Shown here: positions 7,575 to 47,927 of the stretch, piece after piece | Numbering within the stretch: the stretch's first letter is position 1 | Layout: each line of letters opens with the position of its first letter | NCBI GenBank assembly: GCA_903934875.1 | Contig: CAIZPP010000177.1 | Span: 17,344 to 81,343, forward strand | Length of the DNA: 64,000 nucleotides | Origin: an uncultured Methylococcaceae bacterium | Lineage (GTDB): Bacteria > Pseudomonadota > Gammaproteobacteria > Methylococcales > Methylococcaceae | Direction of reading: 5' to 3' | Position numbers and translations under genes: made by a program | Notes under the pieces: generated by a model | Seen by the model: the letters and a program-made list of their open reading frames with translations, nothing else | Told to the model about the DNA's origin: nothing | The model's database searches: none

Positions 7575-9841
7575 ATTCTCTTGTTTTTAGTTTCTGATTT
7601 AACTCGGGAAATTTTTAACACCACGGATAATTTCCGTAGTTCACGCATCACATTGGCCAAGTGCAAGCGGTCTTTTACCGCCAGGGTGATGACATCGGTG
7701 GAAAGTTCGCTATCTTGGTTAGTAATCTGCACATTTTCGATGTTGGCCTTCATCTTGGAAATGACAGAGGCGACTTTGGCTAGAGTGCCCAGCTTATTGA
7801 GTAACTCCAAGCGTATCTCCACAGAAAAGTCGCCGCTGACCTGCCTGTCCCATTCCACATCCAGCCCTGTGTATTGCTTCTTGCGCAACTCAATGACGTT
7901 TTTGCATTCGCTCAAATGCACCACAATGCCTTTGCCGGGATTGAAGAAACCGGCAATTTCATCGCCAGGAATCGGGCGGCAGCACTTCGCCAAGTTAACG
8001 ACCATGCCTTCCGATCCCTTGATGATCAGGGGATAACGCGCACCCTTCTCGACACCATCCAGCCGGTGCGGATGTGCGGTGTCTTCTTGCATCAACAGCC
8101 GCACAACAAGGAAAGGCAGGCGGTTGCCTAGGCCGATATCCTCCTGCAACGATTCGCGCGAAGGCAAATCCAAGGTTTTCAGCAACTCGTTGAAACGCGC
8201 TTCGGGAATGTCTTCCATTCTCATTCCACGGGCACCGAGTTCCTTTTCCAATAGCTTGCTCCCCAAATTGATGGCTTCTTGTTTTTTAAAATTGCGCAGA
8301 TAGCCGCGGATGGCAGACCGTGCTTTGGCGGTGACGACAAAATTAAGCCATAGCGGATTAGGCCTAGCCCAAGGCGCGGTAATGATCTCCACAGTTTGGC
8401 CATTCACCAAAGTAGTTTGCAAGGGGGACAGAACACGGTCAATGCGGGCGGAAACGCAAGCGTTGCCAATATCGGTATGCACTGCGTAGGCGAAATCGAC
8501 GATGGTTGCGCCCCTAGGCAACTTGATGATTTTGCCCTTGGGACTCAGCACATAAACCTCATGCTGGAACAAGTCCACTTTGAGGTTGTCGAGAAACTCC
8601 ATGGAATCGCCCGCGTGTTTCTGGATTTCCAACAAATCGCGCAGCCATTCGTGGGCGCGGGTTTGCGAATTGGAAACCTGCTCCCCTTCCGACTTGTACA
8701 GCCAATGCGCGGCAATACCGCATTCGGCCATATGATGCATGGCTTTGGTACGAATCTGCATTTCCAATGGCTGGCCGAAAGGGCCGACCAGCACCGTGTG
8801 CAGGGATTGGTAGCCGTTTGCCTTGGGCACCGCGATGTAGTCCTTGAAGCGGCTAGGCACCGGTTTGAAAAGGTTGTGGGCCATGCCCAGCGCCCGGTAA
8901 CACTCGTCCACGCTGCCGGTGATGATGCGGTAGGCGTAAACATCGAACACTTCGGCGAATGACAAATGTTTCAAACGCATCTTTTCATAAATGCTGAAAA
9001 CGTGTTTTTCCCTGCCAATCACCTGGAATTCCGCCAGACCGCACTCCTGCAAACGGGTTCTGATGGAGTTCTCAATGTCCGTCAGTAATTCCTTGCGGTT
9101 TCCACACGCTTTTTTGACTTCCTTCTTGAGTATCCGGTGGCGCATGGGATAGTAGGCGGCAAAGCCCAAATCCTCCAACTCCAAGCGCAATTCGTTCATC
9201 CCCAGGCGGTTCGCAATGGGCGCGTAAATGTCCAGCGTTTCTCTCGCAATGCGGCAACGACGCTGGGGTGCCATGACGCCTAGAGTGCGCATATTGTGCA
9301 AACGGTCGGCGAGCTTGACCATGATGACGCGCAAGTCCTTGACCATGGCCATGACCATCTTGCGCACATTCTGCGCCTGCGCCTCGGCCCTGGACTTGCT
9401 GTCAAGTTGGGTTAGTTTGCTGACACCATCGACTAGTTGGGCCACCTCCTCGCCGAATTCCGCCACCAACTGCTCTCTAGAAACCACGGTGTCTTCAATG
9501 ACATCGTGCAACAAACCCGCCATGACACCCTTGGCATCCATCCTCATGTCGGCGAGAATGATCGAAACCGAAATCGGATGGCAAATGTAAGGCTCTCCGC
9601 TGACCCGTTTTTGGCCCTCATGGGCACGCTCCGCCAAACGATAAGCGCGCTGCACCTCTCCCACCTGAACCGGGTCCAAGTAGGTGGACAGCATGGCACT
9701 CAAGCGCCGGATCAACTTTTCCTGCGGCTTTTCCGCTTCGTCTTGGGGAAATTGCTGATGACCTGGCAACCCGCCCGCAGTAAACGAGGATGGATCGTCC
9801 GGGCTCTCCGCTAGATCGGCCTCGCCGGTGTCACCTGCCAT
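7571..9841 (-). CDS. spoT: Bifunctional (p)ppGpp synthetase/hydrolase SpoT
   Basis: HD hydrolase motif (HLLDVIEDT), RelA/SpoT synthetase core, and TGS and ACT C-terminal domains; 756 aa. Confidence 0.9.
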
Positions 9842-32999: not shown

Positions 33000-33445
33000 G
33001 CGTTTTTCCTCTTTAATATTCTTGGAGTCGGGATTTACGTTCTTTTGGTAGGCTTAAAGCCTCAGGTGATTTTAGCATAAACCTTCTCAGTGACATTGTT
33101 TTTTTGCATAGGTGGAAATAGCTTTTTTGAGTTTTATGCACAATCAACGCGGCAAAACGACCGCCACCGCGACGCGGGCAAAACGAGTGCGATTATCTAA
33201 AAACGGCAGTTGGAACGCAGAAAAAACCGTTCGTGCTGAGCGAAGTCGAAGTATGAACAGGTTTTTCCGCCCAAAGGGTTGGGGACAGGGATGTCCCGAA
33301 TGCATCCAGTCACAGGGACGTGAAGCCTCAAGTTTACGATAGGCTTGCCGTAGCCCGTAGCTTGCCATTCTTGGACGCTGGATTCCGGCATCCATGACCG
33401 GAATGACGGGCTATTTCTCACACCTTGGCTCAGCATGGGAATTGC

Positions 33446-35929: not shown

Positions 35930-36006
35930 TCCGGCGGAGGCAGGGGCTACGCCCCTGCACCCCAAAAAAGCCAAAAGCGCAAAGGGACAAAAAGCAAAGA
36001 GCAAAG
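35930..36006 (-). other. Conserved 3' flank of DGR target 1: GC hairpin (gcaggggct-acg-cccctgc) plus an A/T-rich tract, duplicated downstream of target 2 (38718-38815)
   Basis: About 90 nt after each target stop codon are conserved between the two loci. Confidence 0.6.
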
Positions 36007-37047
<1,041 letters not shown>

Positions 37048-37165
37048 CCGTGGCAAGCTCTTTGGCTGCGCATCCTGCGCAACCGGGAGAACCGACCCGT
37101 GGGCACCCGCGGCACTCCCGAAGCATCCTTGAACGCTCCGGCTCCGGCATGGTTGCGGGCGTACT

Positions 37166-37285
37166 GGCAAGACGAAAGCCCTGGTTGTTGTTCGTTTCAT
37201 CTGGCCTGTTCCTGTTGCGGTTGGCCGAACGCAGGTTCTGTGGGTTGTTGTTCCACGAACCCCCGCGAACCCCCCGGCGATCGTC
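37166..37285 (-). other. DGR template repeat
   Basis: Non-coding copy of the target 3' end. In the target frame it reads RGVRGGSWNNNPQNLRSANRNRNRPDETNNNQGFRLA, with Asn (AAC) at every position that varies in VR1 and VR2. It lies downstream of, and is overlapped by, the 3' end of the RT ORF. Confidence 0.85.
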
Positions 37286-38354
37286 TGGGCGGTTCCCCCC
37301 GTTGAAAGTATACACGATCTAGGATGGATGAACTCAAACCTTGGGCATCTGCTTGCCGGACATGTCCGAGCCAGCCTGCAACTCGGGTTTGCACGGTACC
37401 CAAGTCAATCCTCCATCGCCCGTAACCAGCCGCCAGACGTTGCAAACGACGGCGGAACTGGTAGCCGCTGCCCCGGCTCAGACGGACGAAGCCGGGAAAA
37501 ACTTGGTAGCCGAGGATGTCTTGCCCCCGGCAAACGCGGAACAAGGATTTTTTGCGGGGGTGGACAGCTAGGCGTTCGGCGGCAAGAAAGCGTTCGATGG
37601 CGGCACACCATTGCCATAACCGGTTTTTATTGTCGGCCAGTAAAACAAGGTCATCGACATATCGCAAATAGGCCCTTGCCTGCAAATCTTCCTTAATGTA
37701 ATGGTCAAGCGGGTCGAGATAAAGATTGCCAAAGAACTGGCTGGTGAGATTGCCCAAAGGCAGACCACAGCGGCGCAGCATCAGGTCAACCAAATCCTCA
37801 TGCGGTTCTGCAACTAGGTTTGGGTTCAAGGGCGCGGGGCTATGGTCGATAATCGTGCCAAACAGCCACAAAACCTCGGGGTCGGCAATATGCCGCGCTA
37901 GTTTTGCCTTCAGGCGGTCATGGTCAATGCTGTCGAAATAACGCTTGATATCCAGTTTGAGCGCATAAGGGTAGCGCTTGGCCCAAACCTGATAGCGCCG
38001 TACTGCGGCATGCACACCCTTGCCGCGCCGGCTGGCATAGCTGTCGAAAATGAAGCGCCGGTCAATGAGCGGTTCCACCACGTTCATAAGCGCATGATGC
38101 ACCACCCGGTCACGGAATGGCGCGGCTGAAATCAACCTGGTTTTGCGGTCGCGCACTTGAAACTGCCGAAATAATCCGGGCCGGTAAGTGCGTTGCAGCA
38201 GGTCTTGGCGAATGTCCACCAGTTCCCATTCCAAATCCAAACCAAACTGTTGGATAGCCGTTTGGCCTGATTTGCCACGCCGGGCCTTGCGATAGGCCAG
38301 CAGTAGATTTTCCCAAGCGGTCACCCGGCTCATCAAATCGCGCAAGGGTCGCAT
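37197..38354 (-). CDS. DGR-type reverse transcriptase
   Basis: RT motifs including LRYVDDLVLL (YxDD). The N-terminus ENLLLAYRKARRGK is typical of DGR and group-II-like RTs. There are no maturase or endonuclease domains. It is adjacent to avd, the template repeat and the variable repeats. The true C-terminus is probably upstream of where the ORF runs into the template repeat. Confidence 0.85.
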   Translation of the reverse strand: MRPLRDLMSRVTAWENLLLAYRKARRGKSGQTAIQQFGLDLEWELVDIRQDLLQRTYRPGLFRQFQVRDRKTRLISAAPFRDRVVHHALMNVVEPLIDRRFIFDSYASRRGKGVHAAVRRYQVWAKRYPYALKLDIKRYFDSIDHDRLKAKLARHIADPEVLWLFGTIIDHSPAPLNPNLVAEPHEDLVDLMLRRCGLPLGNLTSQFFGNLYLDPLDHYIKEDLQARAYLRYVDDLVLLADNKNRLWQWCAAIERFLAAERLAVHPRKKSLFRVCRGQDILGYQVFPGFVRLSRGSGYQFRRRLQRLAAGYGRWRIDLGTVQTRVAGWLGHVRQADAQGLSSSILDRVYFQRGEPPRRSPGGSRGFVEQQPTEPAFGQPQQEQAR

Positions 38355-38363
38355 GATCCGGCT

Positions 38364-38717
38364 CTACAGATTAACGGCGGCACGCCGCCAACCACCGATT
38401 TGCCGACCTAGTTCCGCCAAACGTTCAGAACCTTGGCCGTACGCCTTGGTTGGAATGGCCTTGAGGCTGTGGCTCAAGCGCCATAAATGGCGAACCACAT
38501 CCAAACGGAGGTTGGCTGCGCGAAGGATGTCTTCCCTCTGCTTAGTATAAGCCGCCTCCACCAGCCGCTCCAGCACAAACAATAACCCGCTTTCGATGCG
38601 CTCGCCCAAGGTGAAGCGGCGGGCGCGGGGGAAGCCGTCCAAATGCGGGATGATCCAGCCCAGCAGGGCGTGGCAGTCCTCCACGACTTTGGGATTGATT
38701 GAAGATTCTTTATTCAT
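38364..38717 (-). CDS. avd: Accessory variability determinant (Avd-like four-helix-bundle protein)
   Basis: 117-aa basic helical protein between target 2 and the RT; C-terminal ...LAELGRQIGGWRRA resembles the bAvd family. Confidence 0.65.
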   Translation of the reverse strand: MNKESSINPKVVEDCHALLGWIIPHLDGFPRARRFTLGERIESGLLFVLERLVEAAYTKQREDILRAANLRLDVVRHLWRLSHSLKAIPTKAYGQGSERLAELGRQIGGWRRAAVNL

Positions 38718-38815
38718 GCAGCACTCCCAAAAAAAATTCGGCAGGGGCTAAGCCCCTGCACCCCGAAAACACAAAAAAGCAAAAAGCGCAAAGGGACAAA
38801 AAGCAAAGGGCAAAG

Positions 38816-41800
38816 TCACAAAGCCCTGGCAAGACGAAAGCCCTGGTCGTAGTTCGAGTCATCTGGCCTGTACCAGTTGCGGAAGGCCGAACGCAGGATC
38901 TGAGGGAAATTGATCCACGAACCCCCGCGAACCCCCCGGTCACAATTCGCGGCCCCGCCCCAAGCCGAACCGTCCGTCGGTGCACCTTGGTAACTATCAT
39001 GCCAGCAGTCCGCCACCCATTCCCACACATTGCCGGCCGTGTCATGCAGCCCCCAAGGATTGGCGGCGAAGGAACCCACAGGGGCGGTTTGTTTACCATC
39101 CCATACACTGCCACCACCGCCTCCATTCGCATGGTTCTTGCCCAAGGCATCGCCCCACCAATAGGCCGTGGTGGTACCGGCGCGGGCGGCATATTCCCAT
39201 TCCGCCTCGCTCGGCAGACGGTAGGTCTGGCCGGTTTGCCGGGACAGCCACGCGGCGTAGTCTTGGGCGTCTTGCCAACTGACGTTGATCACAGGCCGTG
39301 TGCCCCGGCCCCAGCCGTTGTCAGCAGGCAGTTTTTTTCCGCTGGCTTGGGCGTAGCGGTCATAGTCGTCAAACGTCACTTCATCGCGGCCGATGGCAAA
39401 GGCGCGGGGTATGGTCACACTGTGTTGCGGGCCTTCGTCTGGATAACGCCCGTTTTCTGTAGTCGGCGAACCCATGCTGAACTGACCGGTGGGGATGGAC
39501 ACCATGACCGGGCCTAGGCCACCGTATTGCAACGGGTCTTGGAAGGTTTGCGGCTGGGCAGCCTGCTTATTCCACAGCAAGTCATTGAAAGCGGCCCGCG
39601 CCTGATAGCTATGGGCAAGGCTCACGCGCAAACCGGTGGACTCAGGCATGGGCAGCAAGCGGGCATCCACGCCATAGCCCACATGCCGCAGCGTCTTCGC
39701 CAGCCGTTGCGCCGCCGCTTCAGCAGCGGGGGGGTAACTAATGCTATCGGCCTGGGCACTCGTTACGGGCCGCAGCGCGGCGACCCGGAAGCCCTGCGGG
39801 ACTAGACTGGCTTGCAGGGCTAGAGCCAACGCCTGGGTTTGGCCCAAATAGTCTATGCTTACCAGCCAGCGCCCATTTTCATGGGCCAACTGGGTTTGCC
39901 ATTGCCGCACCAGCCAGTCCTTGCCCTGGGTTTCCCACCAGCCGCCGCCACCCCAACTTGCTAGGCCAGCGAACACGACAGCCCATACGGCGGGCCTTAA
40001 ATCCCAACGGTTGCGGCCCTGAAGAAATATCCCGGCGAGGATTTGCGGCAAGCGGAATTGCCAAAAATCCAGCCGCTTGCCGCGCAGGATTTGCACAAAG
40101 ATGGGGTCGCCCAGCGCACCGGCGCGGTCAGTGCGCAGTAGGTCTTTGACCAGTTTGCGCAAGGGTTCCAGCACCGTGATGCCACCCTGCCCAGTTTGAC
40201 GGCTAAACAGTGCCTCCCAAGTGTCGCGGATGTGCAAGCGCTCGGCATCGCCGGCTTGGCGCAGCAGGTGTATGCGCATATAGCGGGGGAAATAGGCATG
40301 GGTGAACCAAGGCAATTTCAGCAAGCGCGTCAAACGGGCCTCGCGGGCTTCGGCTAGCCCGGCTTGCTGGCCTTCAAAGCATAGATAATCCACCGCCTGG
40401 GTGAGTTTCCATTGGCATTCCGGGAAGGCGACCAGGGTTTGCAACAAAGCCCAACCATCCTCATGCAGATAGGCGCGGAGTTCTCGGGCCAGCGTGGCCA
40501 ACGGAATGTCACTGGGCGGGCTGGGTTTCAACCAGCGCTGGGGGTAGTCGGCAATGCTGTCGGGCAGGGGGTCTTGCGCCTCGCTTTCGCGCAGGGCCGA
40601 CACCGGCCAAGCCTCGTCGGCGGACAAATAAACGGCCAAATCGGCAAGGCTTAAGCTGGCCAGGGGCAGATACAGAAAGCCTTTAAGCAACAGCAGCCGC
40701 GCATCCAAGGCATCCACCTCACCGGCACCCAGCCAGACCCGTTGCGGCCAAGCCGCAAAATCATCCAGCCAAAGGCGCGGCTGCCCCGTGGCCGGGTGGA
40801 ACAGAATGCGGCCTTCGCTGATGATGATGAGGCGCGCGCAATCATGGCGCAAGGCCAATTCGCCCAAGCTTAGAGGCCCGCCCTCCGCAAGCGGCCAGGG
40901 GATGAGTTGGCTAGGGCTGTCGAGGAAACGGTAGCTTTCGGTCGTGAGTCTGGCCTCGCGGAAGCGCCGCACCAGTTCTTCCCCCAGCAGGGCCTGCTGG
41001 TCGTGGATATGCTGGCTGTGCACGAGGATCAGGTACACCGGGCGTTCCAAGCATAGCCTGTGACAGGGGACGAAATAACCGGCTTGGCGGGCGGTGGCTT
41101 GGACGGTCTTGGCGATGTGCAGGCGGCGGGACTCGCCATAGGACACCCGGCCCAAACTATTTAAAGCTTGCTCGGACTGGCCTCCGCCGTATAGCGGCTG
41201 AGCGGGGTTGGCAAAATCCAAATCCCGCGCCACCTCGTCGCCGTCCGGCGTGTCGGTTTCGAGTATCTTCGGCCGGCCGAGGTAGCATCGATAAAGCCAA
41301 AGCAGGGCCAGCAGGCAAGGCAACAAGCGCAGCGCCAGCCCCACCCGCCCTCGCGCCTGTTCCCAAGCCGGCGGCAGGCGGACGGGTTCCGGCAGGCGGT
41401 TGGGTGGTGCCCAATCGTCGACCTTGACGGCGGGCGGCTGGCCGGCTGGGACAGTGGCAGGCTGGGTTGCAATAGTGGGCAGTGGCGGCGGCGCTACAAT
41501 TGGGTCTGCGGGCGGGTTTAAGGCCAGTGTCGCCCAAAGCCCTGCCAACAGCAGCAATAGTGCCAGCAAACCTATGCTTTGCCGACGGTCGAAGCGTCGC
41601 AACCTGTTCTGCCAACGCTGCCAAGGCGTACTGTCGAACGTGCTGAATTGGCCGGAGGTGGACAGCGTGTCCGTGCCGCTCAACCATTGCGCCACAATGT
41701 GGGGAAAGCGGGCCTGCTCCTCTGGTCCGCGACAGAGCAAAGGCCCGATCAGCCGGGCCAGTTCCTCAGGCTTGTCGGGCCCGGGTATGCGCCCTTGCTG

Positions 41801-41935
41801 AAAGCGCAGCGCCAGCAAATCATGCACCGTCTGCCAAGCGTCCGGGCCACGCGGCATGTCGTGCCGGCGCAGCAGCTCATCTAGCGCGGCCAGATCAAGC
41901 AGGGCATGCTGGCCGCTTGGAATTGCCTTAGGCAT
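38816..41935 (-). CDS. DGR target protein 2: 1039-aa membrane protein with a C-terminal FGE/CLec-fold domain carrying variable repeat 2
   Basis: Predicted transmembrane helices near aa 150-170 and 235-255; the central region has no recognised domain. The C-terminal 280 aa are FGE-sulfatase-like (RLPSEAEWEYAARAG...GNVWEWVADCWHDSY...RGVRGGSW...GFRLARAL). Variable repeat 2 = 38828-38945. Confidence 0.8.
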   Translation of the reverse strand: MPKAIPSGQHALLDLAALDELLRRHDMPRGPDAWQTVHDLLALRFQQGRIPGPDKPEELARLIGPLLCRGPEEQARFPHIVAQWLSGTDTLSTSGQFSTFDSTPWQRWQNRLRRFDRRQSIGLLALLLLLAGLWATLALNPPADPIVAPPPLPTIATQPATVPAGQPPAVKVDDWAPPNRLPEPVRLPPAWEQARGRVGLALRLLPCLLALLWLYRCYLGRPKILETDTPDGDEVARDLDFANPAQPLYGGGQSEQALNSLGRVSYGESRRLHIAKTVQATARQAGYFVPCHRLCLERPVYLILVHSQHIHDQQALLGEELVRRFREARLTTESYRFLDSPSQLIPWPLAEGGPLSLGELALRHDCARLIIISEGRILFHPATGQPRLWLDDFAAWPQRVWLGAGEVDALDARLLLLKGFLYLPLASLSLADLAVYLSADEAWPVSALRESEAQDPLPDSIADYPQRWLKPSPPSDIPLATLARELRAYLHEDGWALLQTLVAFPECQWKLTQAVDYLCFEGQQAGLAEAREARLTRLLKLPWFTHAYFPRYMRIHLLRQAGDAERLHIRDTWEALFSRQTGQGGITVLEPLRKLVKDLLRTDRAGALGDPIFVQILRGKRLDFWQFRLPQILAGIFLQGRNRWDLRPAVWAVVFAGLASWGGGGWWETQGKDWLVRQWQTQLAHENGRWLVSIDYLGQTQALALALQASLVPQGFRVAALRPVTSAQADSISYPPAAEAAAQRLAKTLRHVGYGVDARLLPMPESTGLRVSLAHSYQARAAFNDLLWNKQAAQPQTFQDPLQYGGLGPVMVSIPTGQFSMGSPTTENGRYPDEGPQHSVTIPRAFAIGRDEVTFDDYDRYAQASGKKLPADNGWGRGTRPVINVSWQDAQDYAAWLSRQTGQTYRLPSEAEWEYAARAGTTTAYWWGDALGKNHANGGGGGSVWDGKQTAPVGSFAANPWGLHDTAGNVWEWVADCWHDSYQGAPTDGSAWGGAANCDRGVRGGSWINFPQILRSAFRNWYRPDDSNYDQGFRLARAL
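38828..38945 (-). repeat. DGR variable repeat 2
   Basis: Differs from the template repeat at about 16 positions, all template T (coding-strand A) except one G/A. Confidence 0.85.
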
Positions 41936-42258
41936 GGCCTGCCTTAAGGGGTTGGCCTAACAACTTTCCGAAAGAAATCAGGCAGACAAGTGCAGGAGAC
42001 CCGTCATTTCGGCAGGGATGCCGAAATCCAGCGTCCAAGGATGGCAAGCTTGGGTCCACGACCAGCATCCGTGTGTTCGGGGATGTGAAACTGCGGGTTC
42101 GCATACGAACTGCTCCAAACACTTGCAAAGTCGATAGGCTACCGTCCCTGGCCTGGATACCGGCAGCCATGCCGGTATGACGACGCTTTTGGTTCTGTAC
42201 GGCTGGCCTGTGACGATGATAACAACCGCTTGGAACCCTAAGCGTTTTCAGCCACATC

Positions 42259-43356
42259 CTAAGCACCGCCCCGGACCCAGGATTGGATCAGTTCCGCGCC
42301 TTTTTTTTGGTCATTTTGCAGTTTGAGCAGGGCATGGCGGGCGCTGCTGTGGAAAATCACATCCTGCCGGCCAGGGGCCAAGCCGGCCTCGGTTTGTTGG
42401 CGGCTAAGATAATACACCCAAGCCAACAGTTCCGCCACGGAAGGGGGTTTGTCGAGTTTCTTGCTTTCCCGCAGATGTTCGTACAGGGAAATGGCCTCAT
42501 CCATCAGCCTCAGCTTATCTGCTGCTATGTCCGGGCCGAAGCGTTGGAACAAGCGGTTTTTGACTATGCCCTCAATGCTGTATTTCGCCCCGCGATAAGG
42601 CGGCGGCTGCATGTGCAGGTACACACAACGGCGCAAAAATGCCTTGGGCAAAGGGCGCTCGTCGTTGCTGGTGATGATGATGACGGGACGGTACGGGTTG
42701 TCCGCGCCAATGGCGACTGCATCGGGAAAATATTCAAACAGCTCGGGGATTTTGAAGCTAAGCCTTTCGATTTCGTTGAGGATGTCATTGGGCACTTCGC
42801 GTGGCGCTTTGTCGATTTCGTCAATCAGCACGACGGCACGGCAAGGCTGGTGCGGGAGTTTTTCCCAGTCGGCCTGGCGCATCAGTTTCTTGCTAACTTG
42901 CTCGCGGCCTTGGGCATATAAGATGGCCTTGCCCAACGCTTCATAGGTGATGAATTCCTGCGGTTTGGAATTACCGTCGTCTTTTTTATGGAAGCGGCCC
43001 AGGGTGTCAAAGCGGTAAAACAACTCGCTGCTGTGGGTGTCGGACTTGACGGTGAAGCGCAGCGGCTGCGGGTCTTGCTCCGCGTCCAGCCCCTGCTGGT
43101 CCGGCAGAATCGGGAAGTTCAACTCCCAAGCGATGCTGCTGGCCAGTTCGGACTTGCCACAACCCGGCTCGCCAGTGACCAGCAAAGGCATGCCTAAGTC
43201 CAAGGCCACATTCACCGCCGCCGCCAATTCCGGCGAAGCCACATATTTGCTGGGGTCGGTCAACGGCGAGGGGTCCACCGGGCGGATATCGGCCCAAGCC
43301 TGCCGGGATTGGACACCTTCGCCGTGGTAGAGGGGTTTCGGGGTAGGGTTTGACAT
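42259..43356 (-). CDS. AAA+ ATPase (MoxR/AAA_5-like)
   Basis: Walker A GEPGCGKS; Walker B VVLIDEIDKAPR; sensor region. Its stop overlaps the upstream protease gene start. Confidence 0.7.
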   Translation of the reverse strand: MSNPTPKPLYHGEGVQSRQAWADIRPVDPSPLTDPSKYVASPELAAAVNVALDLGMPLLVTGEPGCGKSELASSIAWELNFPILPDQQGLDAEQDPQPLRFTVKSDTHSSELFYRFDTLGRFHKKDDGNSKPQEFITYEALGKAILYAQGREQVSKKLMRQADWEKLPHQPCRAVVLIDEIDKAPREVPNDILNEIERLSFKIPELFEYFPDAVAIGADNPYRPVIIITSNDERPLPKAFLRRCVYLHMQPPPYRGAKYSIEGIVKNRLFQRFGPDIAADKLRLMDEAISLYEHLRESKKLDKPPSVAELLAWVYYLSRQQTEAGLAPGRQDVIFHSSARHALLKLQNDQKKGAELIQSWVRGGA

Positions 43357-44873
43357 TATGAACTTCTCCCGGAATGGGCAGGTTGGGATAATACGGCTAG
43401 CAGGTCGTTTTTGATTTCTGCACGGATATGGCGATAAGGCTTGGGCTTGTTCGACGCGAAATGTTGGTCAGTGCGAAATTCGAGTTCTGATTGTTGCGAG
43501 GGGTCAAAACCCTGCGGTTCAAGCTCTCTTATCCAAGCATGTAAATGCGCCTTGCGCAGGGCCGGTGTGCGGTCTGGCTTGATGACGCGGCCTGCTTGCG
43601 ATAATTTTCCCTGCATACGAAAAACCCAGAATCTAAGCCAGCAGCGCCGCCACCCATTCAGCCAGCCACTGCGCCACCACGAAGTGCCATAGGGTTTTTT
43701 ATGCGACAAAATTAAGCAGTGCTGATGCCCCTCGCCATCGCAGGTGAGCTTTTCCCAAGCCTCGGCCATCCCGGCTATCCATGCATGGTTGTGGACTTGC
43801 CGGCCAATATCCAACTCAAACACCATAGGCGTTTGCTTGCCTAGCAGGGCATTTTTGATGTTCGCCTCGGTGAGGGCTTTTTTGATATCCTCCTCAGTGA
43901 GGGCTTTTTTGATGGCCTCCTCAGTGAGAGCTTTTTTGATGTCCTCCGCGGTGACGGATGGCACAATAAGCTTGTTCCCGAGCAATTCCCATAAGACTTC
44001 CTCGGGCTTCCTAGACCCTAAGGAATCGCCGGATAGCGTGAGTGGTGCAGGGGCGAGTTGGTCGCCGCCCAATTGGTGTATAAGCTTGAACCCCAGCGAG
44101 TCGGGACACTCCACGTCAAAATCCGTAAACACACAAGCCGTGGCCTTGAAAGTGCCTAAGCGGCTCCGGTCGGGTATCACCAGCTTGATCTGCCTCGCTT
44201 GGGCCTCAGTCTTGACCAAGGAACTCAAAAACCACAAGTCGCGCTTGATGAGGGTGTCCTGCTGTTGGCAACCGCCAATAGCCTGGGCGAAGCCAGGAAT
44301 AGTGTACAGTTTCCAGGTTGGGATTGCATTGAAACGCCGGCCCCGAAAGACTTTGGGCGCGGAAACAATCACTCCGATAATGCCGCTTCCACTGAACACC
44401 GGGCCACCCGATACGCCTTGCCACAAGGATTCATCGTTGGTGGCGTAATCCTCACCCAATTGGAACTCCCATTCCTTGTCTGCCCTCAAGAGGACTTTCC
44501 CGCCTAATGGAACCGGTGGGGAACGGCCATTGTCTTGTGCACCGGCGATGGCGAAACCGGCACCCTCCCACGGGTCACGGTTGCTTGGCTTGGCGCGGTT
44601 TAGCCTGCCATAAGCCTCGGCCCCGGCCGGGAACAGGCATTCAAGCACGGCCACATCAATCTCTTCGCCTCCGTGCCAATGAATCTTTTTGACTTCCTTC
44701 CAATCGCGAAGCTGGCCGTCCTGATGATACCAGCGCACTTGGATGGGCCGGTCAGGGTCGCGGTTTGGCGGAAACAACACATGGCGGGCGGTCAGGATGC
44801 GCCCTGGGGCCACAGGGTAACCGGTGCCGACTGTCCCTTTGCCGTCGCTGGTGGGGACGAAAATTTGCACCAA
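43356..44873 (-). CDS. Trypsin-like serine protease with a C-terminal domain of unknown function containing 8-aa tandem repeats
   Basis: Catalytic His (LTARHVL), Asp (IDVAVLE) and Ser (WQGVSGGPVF, GDSGGP-like). (E/D)IKKALTE is repeated 4 times, encoded by 24-bp tandem DNA repeats at 43864-43959. Confidence 0.7.
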   Translation of the reverse strand: MVQIFVPTSDGKGTVGTGYPVAPGRILTARHVLFPPNRDPDRPIQVRWYHQDGQLRDWKEVKKIHWHGGEEIDVAVLECLFPAGAEAYGRLNRAKPSNRDPWEGAGFAIAGAQDNGRSPPVPLGGKVLLRADKEWEFQLGEDYATNDESLWQGVSGGPVFSGSGIIGVIVSAPKVFRGRRFNAIPTWKLYTIPGFAQAIGGCQQQDTLIKRDLWFLSSLVKTEAQARQIKLVIPDRSRLGTFKATACVFTDFDVECPDSLGFKLIHQLGGDQLAPAPLTLSGDSLGSRKPEEVLWELLGNKLIVPSVTAEDIKKALTEEAIKKALTEEDIKKALTEANIKNALLGKQTPMVFELDIGRQVHNHAWIAGMAEAWEKLTCDGEGHQHCLILSHKKPYGTSWWRSGWLNGWRRCWLRFWVFRMQGKLSQAGRVIKPDRTPALRKAHLHAWIRELEPQGFDPSQQSELEFRTDQHFASNKPKPYRHIRAEIKNDLLAVLSQPAHSGRSS

Positions 44874-45093
44874 CAGATTATTGTCGATGGGTCATCTCCT
44901 TTCGGGGGTTATGCCGTTCGTGGTGAGCTTGTCGAACCATGAATGGCTTAACCGTCCATCCTTCGACTTCGCTCAGGACGAACGGTTAAGCCTTATTTGC
45001 TAGGGCTTTCGGGCAGGAAAGTCGGGCAACGGAAAAGATGTTGCCCGACCTACATACTTGACGCGCACCGTACATTGCCGACCCGTCGCCCGT

Positions 45094-45441
45094 CTAATCA
45101 TTCGGCCTGTCCGACGTTTGGCCGAGCAACACTTGCTTTGCCTCGGTTGGCTGCCGGGAACCAGCCTCCACTTGCTGCGGCTTCAACTTCAGCTTTAGCT
45201 TTTGCACGGCTTGCGTGGACATTTCCCCTTCCGCCTTGCTGTTGACGACCCAAAATTCGACCCCCGCCTCGCCACTGGCTTTCTTGGCCGATGTCACTGC
45301 GACCTCCAGTTCGACTTCCTCCAATAAGAAGCGGATTTCCCCGGCGTTGCCTTCGCTTTGGGCCTTGATCAATTCTTTGCGCAAATCGCCGATGAGTTGC
45401 GCAAGCCCGATTCGGTTGTCATCTTTCATAAGTTTCTCCAT
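45094..45441 (-). CDS. trypco2-like (trypsin co-occurring domain 2) small protein
   Basis: ...IGLAQLIGDLRKEL...IRFLLEEVELEVAVTSAKKASGEAGVEFWVVNSKAEG...QKLKLKLKP pattern, recalled from memory of trypco2 family members; immediately upstream of the protease gene. Confidence 0.5.
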   Translation of the reverse strand: MEKLMKDDNRIGLAQLIGDLRKELIKAQSEGNAGEIRFLLEEVELEVAVTSAKKASGEAGVEFWVVNSKAEGEMSTQAVQKLKLKLKPQQVEAGSRQPTEAKQVLLGQTSDRPND

Positions 45442-45444
45442 CTG

Positions 45445-45744
45445 TTAACAGACCAAAACATCCCCGCCCTTTTCGTCCCCGCAAATATACTCAAGCGCTT
45501 GCCGGTTGCGCGGCGGGCTTTCCTGCGTGGCTGAATAGGCTTCCAGAATGGGACGGAAGTATCGCTCCGTTGCAGGCGTGGCGTAGACGAGATAGGCCAG
45601 GCCGTCTTCGCTCCAGCATCCAAACAAAGCCATGCCCGGCGGACCGTTGCGGGACAGGTAGGCAGCGCGGAAGGCACCCCGGAGGATGTCCACTTCGCCC
45701 GATGCGTATTCCTGCCGGGTCAGGTGTATGCAATGCCACGCCAT
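45445..45744 (-). CDS. Hypothetical protein, probably co-transcribed with the trypco2 gene
   Basis: 99-aa ORF ending 4 nt before the trypco2 start; no recognisable family. Confidence 0.35.
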   Translation of the reverse strand: MAWHCIHLTRQEYASGEVDILRGAFRAAYLSRNGPPGMALFGCWSEDGLAYLVYATPATERYFRPILEAYSATQESPPRNRQALEYICGDEKGGDVLVC

Positions 45745-46917: not shown

Positions 46918-47927
46918 TTAGGCAATTGGATTAAGTCTTTAGTTTGGCTGCGCTGCCAATGGATTAACAATTCTTCCAGAAGAAGTTGCCGGTTAACTTG
47001 GCCCAAAAGCATCTTGCGTGCGGCATTCAATCGGTCCAGAAACCTAAATAAATGGCGTAAGTTTGTTTTTTGGGCCAAGATTCGCAAGTGTTCTGCCAAA
47101 TCGGGGTTTTCAACTCCCCTCATGCGGGTGGCGGCCCGCAGGCGGATCATATCCATGATCCAGCAAACCATCCAATCGACGAGAGTCTCGGATGAGTATT
47201 TGGACCATTCTTCCGCCAACACAGCAGGCTCCATGCCACCTTTCGCCAGATCGCACCAAGCGGAAAAAAATTCATCGCGCTTTTCTACGCTGCCATCATT
47301 GGCCAATCCTAAGGCCTTGAGCGGGGCACCACGCGCCAAAGCCAGCAAAACCCCGGCGCGGCTCCCATCCTGCCCCTGTTTCGCCAGCCATGCAAGTGCC
47401 ATAGCCCGATCTGGAACAGGGATATCCATGCGTTGGCAACGGCTAAGGATAGTCGCCGGCAAAGCGTGTGGGGAATCGGTGAGCAACAACAGCGTAGTGT
47501 GTTCATCCGGTTCCTCCAAGGTTTTCAGCAAACTGTTGGCGGAAGATACATTCATTTGCTGCGCTGGGTTGATCAGCACCACGCGTCTTCCGCTATATTG
47601 GGGCTTAAGCGCCAAATTTGCAATCAATCCGCGAATGGCATCCACAGGGATGATTTTACCAGTTTCCTCGGGTTCGATACGGAGGAAATCTGGATGCGTC
47701 TTCGCCTCAAACAAACGGCAACTGGCACATTCACCGCAGGCATATTCTTGCGGGGCGCGGCACAGTAGGCGTTTGCTGAAAGTTTCCGCCAATAGTGTCT
47801 TGCCAATCCCAATCCTTCCGACAATCAGCAAGGCTTGGGGCACACGGCCACAGCGGACATGGGAGCTTAGCCTATGCCAGTGGGTAGCCAGCCAATGCAT
47901 GTCATCCATCAGGTTCATTGCCCGCAC
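46914..47927 (-). CDS. holB: DNA polymerase III subunit delta'
   Basis: AAA+ clamp-loader fold, ...HALLIVGRIGIGKTLLA... and the Zn module CGECASC. Confidence 0.85.
   Translation of the reverse strand: MRAMNLMDDMHWLATHWHRLSSHVRCGRVPQALLIVGRIGIGKTLLAETFSKRLLCRAPQEYACGECASCRLFEAKTHPDFLRIEPEETGKIIPVDAIRGLIANLALKPQYSGRRVVLINPAQQMNVSSANSLLKTLEEPDEHTTLLLLTDSPHALPATILSRCQRMDIPVPDRAMALAWLAKQGQDGSRAGVLLALARGAPLKALGLANDGSVEKRDEFFSAWCDLAKGGMEPAVLAEEWSKYSSETLVDWMVCWIMDMIRLRAATRMRGVENPDLAEHLRILAQKTNLRHLFRFLDRLNAARKMLLGQVNRQLLLEELLIHWQRSQTKDLIQLPK

Follow-up and report, generated by a model that had tools for sequence, protein, structure and literature searches.

The window analysed here (the whole 64,000-nt stretch of DNA) contains an island of ~9.7 kb, at about 35.9–45.44 kb, which occupies a variable spot downstream of tatD–orf99. 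The host appears to be a Methylococcales-like gammaproteobacterium, and in “Ca. Methylumidiphilus sp.,” a related Methylococcales MAG, the backbone position of the island is occupied by an AbiJ/Abi_C (AbiJ-like) gene. All ORFs of the cassette lie on the minus strand, as do the other features described below, and are found where an earlier note on this DNA had placed them. That note had described five tightly packed same-strand genes (a 99-aa ORF, a trypco2-like gene, a trypsin-like protease, an AAA+ ATPase and a 1039-aa target of a diversity-generating retroelement, DGR), with avd, the reverse transcriptase (RT), the template repeat and a second target beyond them. Our analysis confirmed the genes and the DGR. 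The packing was borne out in part: the AAA gene overlaps that of the protease at 43356 and 3 nt separate orf99 from the Trypco2 gene, but spacers of 220 and 324 nt interrupt the array. The 99-aa ORF had to be removed from the cassette, because it is missing from all homologous cassettes compared (L007, L008, L009/L010, L013) and is conserved adjoining tatD in a cassette-less relative; judging by these neighbourhoods, it is a chromosomal backbone gene.

The DGR comprises the accessory protein bAvd (38364–38717; Pfam PF22296, E 3.3e-14), an RT of 385 aa (37197–38354; Pfam RVT_1; PADLOC RT, E 1.7e-48) with the motifs LGNLTSQ and YVDD in its translation, and a template repeat (TR). The TR core (37164–37277), with 31 adenines, spans the junction of two overlapping ORFs, covering both the RT stop codon and the place where the short-target ORF starts. 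The long target (1039 aa, 38816–41935) bears an FGE/CLec domain at residues 809–1037 (Pfam FGE-sulfatase, E 6.5e-59) and, at its C-terminus, the variable region VR1 (38826–38939), which has 14 mismatches to the TR, 13 of them at TR adenines. The short target (397 aa, 36007–37200) bears an FGE/CLec domain at residues 126–395 (Pfam FGE, E 3.4e-67) and VR2 (36017–36130), in which all 19 mismatches fall at TR adenines. About 57 nt past the long target's stop codon lies a GC-rich hairpin, GCAGGGGC-TTA-GCCCCTGC (38741–38759), and its near-identical paralogue, GCAGGGGC-GTA-GCCCCTGC (35940–35958), is situated downstream of VR2. The adenine-specific mismatches, together with bAvd, the RT and the paralogous hairpins after both VRs, verify that the DGR is real. 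The short target has an N-terminal twin-arginine-like motif (RRHFLI), a hydrophobic segment (residues 67–85) and an AWA|KK site, and its hydropathy and sequence predict export to the periplasm.

No domain was found in the central region of the long target in Pfam, NCBIfam or PADLOC, and to this extent the middle ~600 aa are domain-less, as previously described; profile search and structure prediction, however, resolved this region as a membrane-anchored vWA module. The protein consists of a 4-helix N-domain (residues 15–86), TM1 (103–139), a Pro-rich periplasmic loop, TM2 (189–219), a vWA-like alpha/beta domain (about 265–440), a helical domain (459–636), TM3 (646–669) and a periplasmic linker (670–808) leading to the FGE/CLec domain. 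The family of the central module, for which no Pfam model exists, includes 3582 cluster representatives with a constant layout (N-domain, TM, TM, module, TM) and variable C-termini. A scan of 38 members found FGE in 12, CarboxypepD_reg in 10, WD40 in 5, TPR in 4 and Lcl_C in 4, and PASTA was found in the member P0057. Given this family-wide three-TM topology, the CLec domain of the long target is predicted to lie in the periplasm. Two MIDAS-like positions of the vWA domain differ from those of most relatives: position 306 is His (Asp in 66/91 family members) and position 374 is Glu (Asp in 67/91), and by these residues the MIDAS-like positions are degenerate in the subfamily represented in the window. 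Family members without a DGR adjoin MoxR and TIR- or EAD-iSTAND genes, which led us to identify the long target as the vWA component of the iSTAND-type MoxR–vWA ternary conflict systems (Kaur, Burroughs, Iyer, Aravind, 2020, eLife; PMC7159879).

The AAA+ ATPase (365 aa, 42259–43356; Pfam AAA_5/AAA) is of the MoxR type, with Walker A (GEPGCGKS) and Walker B (VVLIDEID) motifs. Over its full length it shares 38–41% identity with the MoxR proteins of two canonical iSTAND ternary loci, L011 and L012, which carry Pfam-iSTAND genes (E 1e-60 and 9e-66); both the MoxR and the central module of the window have clear homologues in such loci. The trypsin-like serine protease (43356–44873; Pfam Trypsin_2, E 2e-7, residues 16–164) has its protease part in residues 1–190, with a triad (H31, D73, S155) that is invariant in an alignment of homologues, fused to a constant C-terminal domain of ~300 aa. 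This domain shows a beta-alpha-beta pattern, lacks a P-loop and, as a sequence, may be called weakly similar to iSTAND: Pfam gave no match for it, iSTAND included, and hhalign against iSTAND returned a probability of 7.7%. The same domain recurs fused to TIR in the sister locus L014, and such swapping of N-terminal effectors (trypsin/TIR) typifies the third components of iSTAND and VMAP systems. We take the protease to be the third component here.

The small Trypco2 (Pepco) protein (115 aa, 45094–45441; Pfam PF19631, E 2.8e-24) was aligned with four syntenic homologues. An N-terminal amphipathic helix is followed by a beta region that ends in KLKLKLKP, and a charged tail of 27 aa, with Pro, forms the C-terminus. 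Experiments have shown that Trypco2/Pepco is a protease-activated pore (PMC12642450), and by analogy the protein of the window is predicted to be a latent pore-forming effector.

The order Trypco2, protease, MoxR AAA, long FGE target (with or without avd, RT and a short FGE target) was also found in unrelated metagenome loci (L007, L008, L009/L010 and L013), and the order long target–avd–RT–next ORF in L019; in sister loci TIR or EAD domains stand in place of the protease. This recurring synteny, whose absence would have refuted the earlier note, together with the topology of the vWA family, supports the core idea of that note: a conflict-type system in which a DGR-diversified extracytoplasmic FGE/CLec receptor works together with an NTPase, a protease and Trypco2. 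The interpretation was mistaken or fell short as regards the 99-aa ORF, the domain-less centre and novelty. No named defence system was said to match the gene set, and indeed PADLOC called none on the island; such systems are nevertheless described in the literature (Kaur et al., 2020; Doré et al., 2024, PNAS, PMC10907252), and therefore the island is not new but a well-preserved example of a putative immune system of a kind already published.

As in the iSTAND-type systems of Kaur et al., a MoxR devoid of extra extensions is encoded directly upstream of the large vWA component. In both, this component has a 4-helix N-domain, TM segments towards its N-terminus and a variable C-terminal part (most often FGS) preceded by a TM segment, and a third gene upstream encodes an effector (trypsin, TIR or EAD) at the N-terminus of its product. 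The window departs from these systems in the degenerate MIDAS-like residues and in the C-terminal domain of the protease, which Pfam iSTAND leaves unmatched and profile comparison finds weakly similar; furthermore, Kaur et al. link DGRs mainly to VMAP systems. The VMAP ternary systems share the logic of MoxR, vWA-FGS and protease/Trypco and the frequent association with DGRs, but no VMAP domain was matched in the protease of the window, its MoxR and vWA component group with proteins of iSTAND systems, and the vWA component is membrane-embedded.

In gene layout, on which the likeness to RT clade 5A rests, the island resembles the DGR 8 and DGR 9 loci of Thiohalocapsa PB-PSB1 (Doré et al., 2024). 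In both, the long CLec target has an N-terminal extension called “unknown” and a MoxR ATPase directly upstream, the second target is short and CLec-only, the targets have TM segments, and Trypco2 and a trypsin-like peptidase without a canonical VMAP domain adjoin; the hosts differ, being Methylococcales-like here and a purple sulfur bacterium there. According to our analysis, the “unknown extension” is the TM vWA module of iSTAND systems, which Doré et al. nowhere mention. The Pepco (Trypco1/Trypco2)–protease effector modules (bioRxiv 2025.11.14.688446; PMC12642450) likewise have a small Trypco2 gene directly upstream of a trypsin-like serine protease, the same amphipathic N-helix, beta region and charged Pro-containing tail, and FGE-type sensors among the listed partners. 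The tested protease was, however, fused to an Avs4 STAND sensor, whereas that of the window is separate and governed by MoxR–vWA, and the conserved Ile preceding the cleavage site was not found in the Trypco2 of the window in the alignment with the four homologues.

With somewhat better than even confidence, we propose that the island is a defence-type, iSTAND-type MoxR–vWA ternary conflict system with a DGR-diversified periplasmic CLec (FGE) sensor on its vWA component and a trypsin-like protease and Trypco2/Pepco as effector. Now and then the DGR (RT, Avd, TR) would rewrite adenine-templated codons for the ligand-binding face of two CLec domains in the periplasm. The first domain belongs to the vWA protein, which crosses the membrane three times, and the second, whose role we infer, to an exported protein that is either soluble or anchored. 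When a ligand in the periplasm or envelope (most plausibly a phage component) is bound, the signal would pass through TM3 to the helical and vWA domains in the cytoplasm. Following the remodelling logic of MoxR–vWA pairs in the literature, the ATP-driven MoxR ring would then remodel the complex of vWA and third component as a threshold step, and the protease, held by its iSTAND-like C-terminal domain, would be released or activated. By cutting off the charged Trypco2 tail, as activation by cleavage is described for Pepco, it would generate a membrane-permeabilising beta-barrel, and the infected cell would die (abortive infection). Our literature search found no experiment with any iSTAND or VMAP ternary system defending against phage.

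The direction of signalling presumed here is opposite to that of Kaur et al. (2020), who class FGS as an effector contacting invader molecules directly and VMAP/iSTAND, the third component, as sensors. On their polarity, sensing of the invader would fall to the third component in the cytoplasm (the protease with its constant domain) or to the MoxR–vWA pair; the hypervariable FGE/CLec domains would be deployed at the envelope to bind invader molecules and sequester or immobilise them, and Trypco2 would be an accessory death effector. The peptidoglycan- or envelope-binding domains among the family C-termini, such as PASTA and CarboxypepD_reg, fit this scheme. We nevertheless hold it to be doubtful, since a binding domain in the periplasm that a TM helix connects to a signalling module in the cytoplasm is receptor-like, an effector arm is already present in the protease and pore-former, and Doré et al. 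argue for a sensor role.

The island may, with low probability, be a decaying or silent relic whose DGR no longer diversifies and whose ternary system is unexpressed or non-functional in this lineage. VR1 and VR2 showed no variation among six near-clonal assemblies (that of the window and five others, 99.9–100% identity), hence no sign of current DGR activity, although these are consensus assemblies, in which minority VR variants cannot show. Insertions have also accumulated between genes that abut in relatives. The Trypco2–protease spacer (44874–45093), which contains two hairpins (about 45021–45049 and 44945–44992) followed by an AGGAG Shine-Dalgarno sequence, measures 220 nt vs. 17–82 nt in L007–L009 and L013, and the 324-nt spacer between the AAA gene and the long target (41936–42258) contains a 46-nt dispersed, REP/MITE-like repeat (42002–42047), the same junction in relatives being a 13-nt gap or an overlap. 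In addition, a MIDAS-like Asp is lost, the protease has no canonical well-spaced start codon (an ATC/TTG problem), and a search of the island for sigma-70-like promoters found none. Against decay, all eight ORFs are intact, as are the catalytic and Walker motifs, and the TR has kept its 31 adenines, at which nearly all VR differences lie; moreover, VR1 and VR2 are unlike each other, which indicates that diversification acted on both in the past.

Least likely, and in our view improbable, is a role outside defence, as a variable receptor or adhesin of the envelope that recognises kin or partners or captures substrates, with MoxR–vWA as assembly chaperone (the classical role of such pairs) and the protease as maturation factor: no role of cellular DGR targets has been proven experimentally and the host, apparently a methanotroph-like gammaproteobacterium, is not a known multicellular organism, but the close linkage to a demonstrated death effector (Trypco2/Pepco; PMC12642450), the replacement of the protease by TIR or EAD domains and the Abi gene at the island site of a relative argue against it.

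Two small sequence elements accompany the protease gene. The hairpin element of the spacer upstream is single-copy within the window. The C-terminal domain of the protease is repeat-containing, as had been noted: a 27-nt tandem repeat of 4.0 copies (43846–43954; TRF) encodes (E/A)DIKKALTE repeats, which in the alignment of protease homologues are confined to this strain and P0008.

According to our analysis, the coupling of a diversified FGE receptor to an NTPase and a protease is real, and the earlier note, which had proposed it, was largely correct. The genes concerned all lie on the minus strand. orf99, a 99-aa ORF with no Pfam family (45445–45744), precedes the genes for Trypco2 (45094–45441; PF19631, E 2.8e-24), for a 505-aa protease with a Trypsin_2 domain at residues 16–164 (43356–44873), for a 365-aa AAA+ ATPase of the Pfam AAA_5/AAA type (42259–43356) and for the 1039-aa long target (38816–41935), which ends in an FGE-sulfatase domain (residues 809–1037, E 6.5e-59). 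These are followed by bAvd (38364–38717; Pfam bAvd, E 3.3e-14), a reverse transcriptase (RT; 37197–38354; RVT_1, E 3.6e-22; PADLOC RT, E 1.7e-48) and a 397-aa short target, also an FGE-sulfatase protein in Pfam (36007–37200).

In other genomes, too, FGE or DGR genes stand in synteny with homologues of the protease and ATPase genes. The loci of the distant protease homologues P0017, P0026 and P0020 (~40–47% identity in the protease domain) contain, in this order, Trypco2, the protease, a MoxR-like AAA protein, a long FGE protein and one or more short ones, and the L008 locus additionally carries HRDC and RT genes. In L013, the nearest relative that is not identical, Trypco2, the protease, the AAA protein and a 969-aa FGE target are present, with no avd or RT adjoining the cassette. 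In L019 the order of long target, bAvd, RT and next ORF is the same as in the window, and the pairing of Trypco2 with the protease is kept in five loci. As the core recurs across loci and the DGR does not always adjoin it, gene order points to a conserved four-gene module, which the DGR often accompanies but from which it can be separated. RT and avd were also not called near the cassettes of L007, L009, L014 and L018, which, like L013, keep one or two FGE targets; such cassettes may be served in trans by a DGR from elsewhere or may have lost it. A scan of genome contigs with the AAA protein gave a single match, at 29% identity, in the Thermoleophilaceae MAG JAXDIH010000002.1 (L001).

The DGR itself is genuine: RT, Avd, adenine bias between template and variable repeats, FGE-fold targets and hairpins are all present. 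The 114-nt core of the template repeat (TR; 37164–37277) differs from the first variable region (VR1; 38826–38939) by 14 mismatches, 13 of them at TR adenines, and from the second (VR2; 36017–36130) by 19, every one at an adenine. The RT translation contains the LGNLTSQ and YVDD motifs, the Pfam FGE-sulfatase domains of both targets end at the VRs, and each VR is followed, ~50–60 nt past the stop codon, by a GC hairpin of identical type, with an 8-bp stem and a 3-nt loop. Both the stop codon of the RT (37197) and the annotated short-target start (37200) fall within the TR, so that the C-terminus of the RT and ~12 initial codons of the short target are TR DNA read in other frames; translation of the short target may in fact begin downstream of the annotated position. 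No ongoing diversification was seen among five independent ENA metagenome assemblies (L002–L006), in which VR1, VR2 and the TR are identical to those of the window. This identity says little, because these near-clonal consensus assemblies are 99.90–100% identical to window 32259–53356 overall; the SNPs are few and fall outside the VRs and the TR, 10 of them clustered at 47004–47073 in L004, for instance.

The middle ~600 aa of the long target, previously described as having no recognisable domain, indeed gave no match in PADLOC, NCBIfam or Pfam even at E up to 10, and neither did the protease C-terminus or orf99, but profile searching and structure prediction revealed both a family and a fold. 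A profile of residues 215–645, hereafter the central module, was searched exhaustively against 1.84 billion cluster representatives and gave 3582 matches at E ≤ 1e-3 and 1480 at E ≤ 1e-30; a word-indexed search had returned just seven relatives of the N-terminal extension, so that the family emerged at scale only with the exhaustive profile search. Its members share an N-domain of ~110 aa, TM1, a variable loop, TM2, the ~430-aa module, a further TM helix and a variable C-terminus. A hydrophobic segment lies ahead of the module in 130 of 139 members, and a hydrophobic helix (TM3) comes straight after it in 106 of 113. In the 38 members scanned, no Pfam family covered the module, and the C-termini were FGE (12), CarboxypepD_reg (10), WD40 (5), TPR (4), Lcl_C (4) and others; a PASTA domain occupies this place in the member P0057.

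The structure prediction that the earlier note had suggested for the central region was run with AlphaFold2 (AF2) on residues 1–670, using a 91-sequence alignment, and produced a confident model (pLDDT 83, pTM 0.70). It consists of a four-helix N-domain (15–86), long helices at 103–139 and 189–219, an alpha/beta domain of six or seven strands (~265–440), a helical domain (459–636) and a final helix (646–669). The family motif PEYLxLIDR....DQQA follows core strand 1 and RLLxFSDGxG lies at strand 4, and in the model the two appear to correspond to the two vWA aspartate positions. Across the family, Asp is found at position 306 in 66 of 91 sequences and at 374 in 67 of 91. In the window protein these two residues are His306 and Glu374, with Asp312 kept, and its subfamily replaces Asp306 by His, Arg or Gln and Asp374 by Glu; the two metal-binding MIDAS aspartates of core strands 1 and 4 are thus absent from its vWA-like domain. 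Losses of these aspartates were also noted in other subsystems by Kaur et al. (2020; PMC7159879). The linker between TM3 and the FGE domain (residues 670–808; window 38816–39925) has a weak LytR_C match (E 0.025, residues 700–750); since P0004, the 969-aa relative, has lost most of it, the linker seems to form an extracytoplasmic module that can be separated from the rest.

The genomic context of the family suggests which system the window proteins belong to. Two central-module members unconnected with a DGR could be placed on contigs. In both cases a MoxR-type AAA gene comes before the member, and ahead of that lies a gene with a Pfam iSTAND domain, whose fusion partner is TIR in L011 and EAD7 in L012. 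Over its full length, the window ATPase is 38% (E 1e-60) and 41% (E 9e-66) identical to the MoxR proteins of these two loci, vs. 30% for those of L007-type loci, and the central-module HMM matches the large proteins of L011 and L012 and not the long targets of L007-type loci. In the iSTAND ternary systems of Kaur et al. (2020; PMC7159879), MoxR is devoid of extensions; a 4-helical N-domain characterises the vWA component, about 28% of whose representatives have N-terminal TM segments and whose C-termini are highly variable, with FGS the commonest (22%) and with PASTA, PEGA and OmpA preceded by a TM helix; and the iSTAND core of the third protein is fused N-terminally to TIR, caspase-like or trypsin-like peptidases or EADs. 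The matching MoxR homology and the features of the long target place both window proteins, as far as can be judged from sequence, in this type of system. The VMAP ternary system of the same authors differs in its VMAP-C/VMAP-M domain, for which neither the window protease nor its 20 homologues had a Pfam match. A partial match to the NCBIfam model MadB_ATPase (51.6 bits, cutoff 475) was rejected.

The statement that no named defence system corresponds to this gene set holds for PADLOC-DB v2, which gave no system-level match, no component match for target, Avd or Trypco2, and only weak partial matches (the protease region of LmuA, the P-loop of IetA and a generic RT). It does not hold for the literature, as the system is of kinds already published (Kaur et al., 2020; Doré et al., 2024; Pepco preprint). 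DGR RT clade 5A and the Thiohalocapsa DGRs 8 and 9 share its locus layout, a likeness of layout alone; their target extension was reported to be "without predicted domains," and iSTAND is nowhere mentioned (Doré et al., 2024; PMC10907252). Our literature search found no experiments on any iSTAND or VMAP system.

The protease would be the third component of such a system, and its gene position matches that of iSTAND third components. Its catalytic residues His31, Asp73 and Ser155 do not vary among 21 homologues. The C-terminal region (~300 residues) is rare, with five or six relatives found; a word-indexed search with it returned five, four of which were already in the query alignment. It includes (E/A)DIKKALTE repeats, encoded by a 27-nt tandem repeat (43846–43954; 4.0 copies, 86% matches), which are limited to this strain and the 92%-identical P0008 and are absent in P0009–P0012. 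AF2 modelled the region poorly (pLDDT about 50), as alternating strands and helices in a beta-alpha-beta arrangement with no P-loop. Pfam gave no iSTAND match for the protease even at E up to 10, and when a combined C-terminal profile was aligned with two iSTAND sequences in hhalign, 225 columns were collinear with a probability of 7.7% (E 0.0045), which is not significant. In the L014 locus, where the vWA-FGE protein is 41% identical to that of the window, the position of the protease is taken by a TIR_2 domain with a C-terminal region homologous to that of the window (BLASTP E 3e-8; hhalign 97.8%, E 1.2e-12, 239 columns). This homology indicates a single constant domain that carries trypsin in the window and TIR in L014, i.e., alternative N-terminal effectors, as is characteristic of the third components in iSTAND and VMAP systems. 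An iSTAND identity of the domain is plausible, though unproven.

The protease homologues P0014–P0031 (L007–L010) form a second subfamily, with the same Trypco2 partner and trypsin domain. Their C-terminal domain is a different one (hhalign shows no similarity to that of the window), so a shared identity of the two was rejected. The loci encode a more distant MoxR (30% identity), no vWA-type module is present in their long FGE targets, and the long targets of L007–L009 were likewise rejected as the same vWA component; the subfamily appears to represent a parallel, differently built system.

The start of the window protease is also unusual. After an in-frame TGA its frame reads ATC GAC AAT AAT CTG TTG GTG, where the homologues have M-D-K-N-L-L-V, and AGGAG stands a few bases upstream of the ATC at a typical Shine-Dalgarno distance (window 44871–44900). 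This suggests a non-canonical, weak or attenuated start.

orf99, which had been counted among the five genes of the operon, has to be removed from it: it is missing from every homologous cassette and is a backbone gene following tatD. Its cluster at 90% identity has 20 members, including a protein from a Candidatus Methylumidiphilus sp. MAG, vs. one for the long target and three for the AAA ATPase. The backbone of this related MAG (L015/L016; the stretch concerned is 8001–9292) reads fabD-fabG-acpP-fabF-pabC-mltG-tmk-holB-pilZ-tatD-orf99, and after orf99 an AbiJ_NTD4/Abi_C gene stands in the place of the cassette. Nucleotide synteny between the window and this MAG (78–80% identity) breaks off almost at the stop codon of orf99, no more than a few bases away; the island therefore extends from about 35.9 to 45.44 kb. 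The relative holds a different abortive-infection gene there, so the tatD-orf99 site of this Methylococcales-like host resembles a hotspot for defence genes.

As for the topology of the long target, six K/R and two D/E residues precede TM1, the loop between TM1 and TM2 is Pro-rich and uncharged, and the stretch before the third helix is positive (4 vs. 1). On the basis of this charge bias and of the third TM helix found family-wide, the N-domain and the vWA/helical module are predicted to be cytoplasmic, and residues 670–1039, including the FGE/CLec domain and VR1, periplasmic. The short target has a twin-arginine-like motif (RRHFLI), a hydrophobic segment at 67–85 and an AWA|KK site, and is predicted to be exported. 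Hydropathy and sequence revealed no TM segment or signal peptide in MoxR, the protease or Trypco2.

Trypco2 belongs to the Pepco proteins (Trypco1/Trypco2), which form nonameric or decameric beta-barrels; a linked trypsin-like protease activates them by cutting off a charged, proline-rich C-terminal tail, killing is consistent with membrane permeabilisation, and FGE-type sensors are among their partners (2025 preprint, PMC12642450). The window Trypco2 has a conserved amphipathic N-helix, a beta region ending at the invariant L86 and P88, and a variable 27-residue tail (residues 89–115), which is charged and contains Pro. In its alignment with homologues, no conserved Ile was identified ahead of the putative cleavage site.

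These features could be combined into a mechanism, which we propose as somewhat more probable than not. The DGR would diversify two periplasmic lectin surfaces; ligand binding on the membrane receptor would be passed on by TM3 to the vWA/helical module in the cytoplasm; MoxR would remodel the complex with ATP; the protease would be released or activated; and Trypco2 would be cleaved, with permeabilisation of the membrane. Less probably, the polarity is that considered by Kaur et al. (2020), in which the FGS domain is the effector and the third component the sensor. A more far-reaching reading, which we regard as possible rather than probable, is a genuine outside-in immune pathway resembling that of an antigen receptor. 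If this is true, a somatically hypermutable periplasmic lectin on a three-pass membrane vWA protein would recognise surface molecules of phage or of other foreign origin, either ahead of genome entry or while it takes place, and would signal across the membrane, by way of ATP-driven remodelling by MoxR, to a death cascade that leads from protease to pore; the short target, being exported, would be a soluble co-receptor or decoy; and the ~430-aa cytoplasmic module, with its 3582 representatives, would define a large unrecognised class of TM sensors for MoxR-gated effectors.

Nothing in bacteria comes closer to hypervariable antigen receptors than DGR-diversified sensors coupled to death effectors, and to our knowledge no such sensor has been tested experimentally. 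The locus described here is a compact and intact example (~9.7 kb) with a clear membrane topology and an effector, Trypco2/Pepco, for which the biochemical mechanism is known. The new elements are modest: the probable link between the unknown N-terminal extension of clade-5A type and the TM vWA component of iSTAND systems; a module that lacks a Pfam model and has thousands of cluster representatives; the trypsin/TIR swap on a shared constant domain; the exclusion of orf99 from the cassette; and the position of the island in the tatD-orf99 hotspot. They aid annotation and experimental design and leave the published conceptual picture unchanged.

The tight packing ascribed to the operon applies to the protease and ATPase genes, which overlap by 1 nt, and to the RT and short-target genes, but not to the gaps of 220 nt between Trypco2 and the protease (17–82 nt in relatives) and of 324 nt between the ATPase and the long target (13 nt or an overlap in relatives). 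The 220-nt spacer contains two strong hairpins (44945–44992 and ~45021–45049, with stems of about 17 and 10 bp), both single-copy within the window, and neither occurs in the shorter spacers found at homologous loci; an attenuator, a terminator or an inserted element would each be a possible explanation. A scan of the island for sigma-70-like promoters found none, and Rfam and tRNA scans of the window gave no matches. The spacer between the ATPase and the long target holds a 46-nt dispersed, REP/MITE-like repeat (42002–42047; 91% identity) with an inverted CGGCATCCCTGCCG core, which is also intergenic in the related MAG (L015 9780–9922), where it lies within a longer match to window ~33304–33445.
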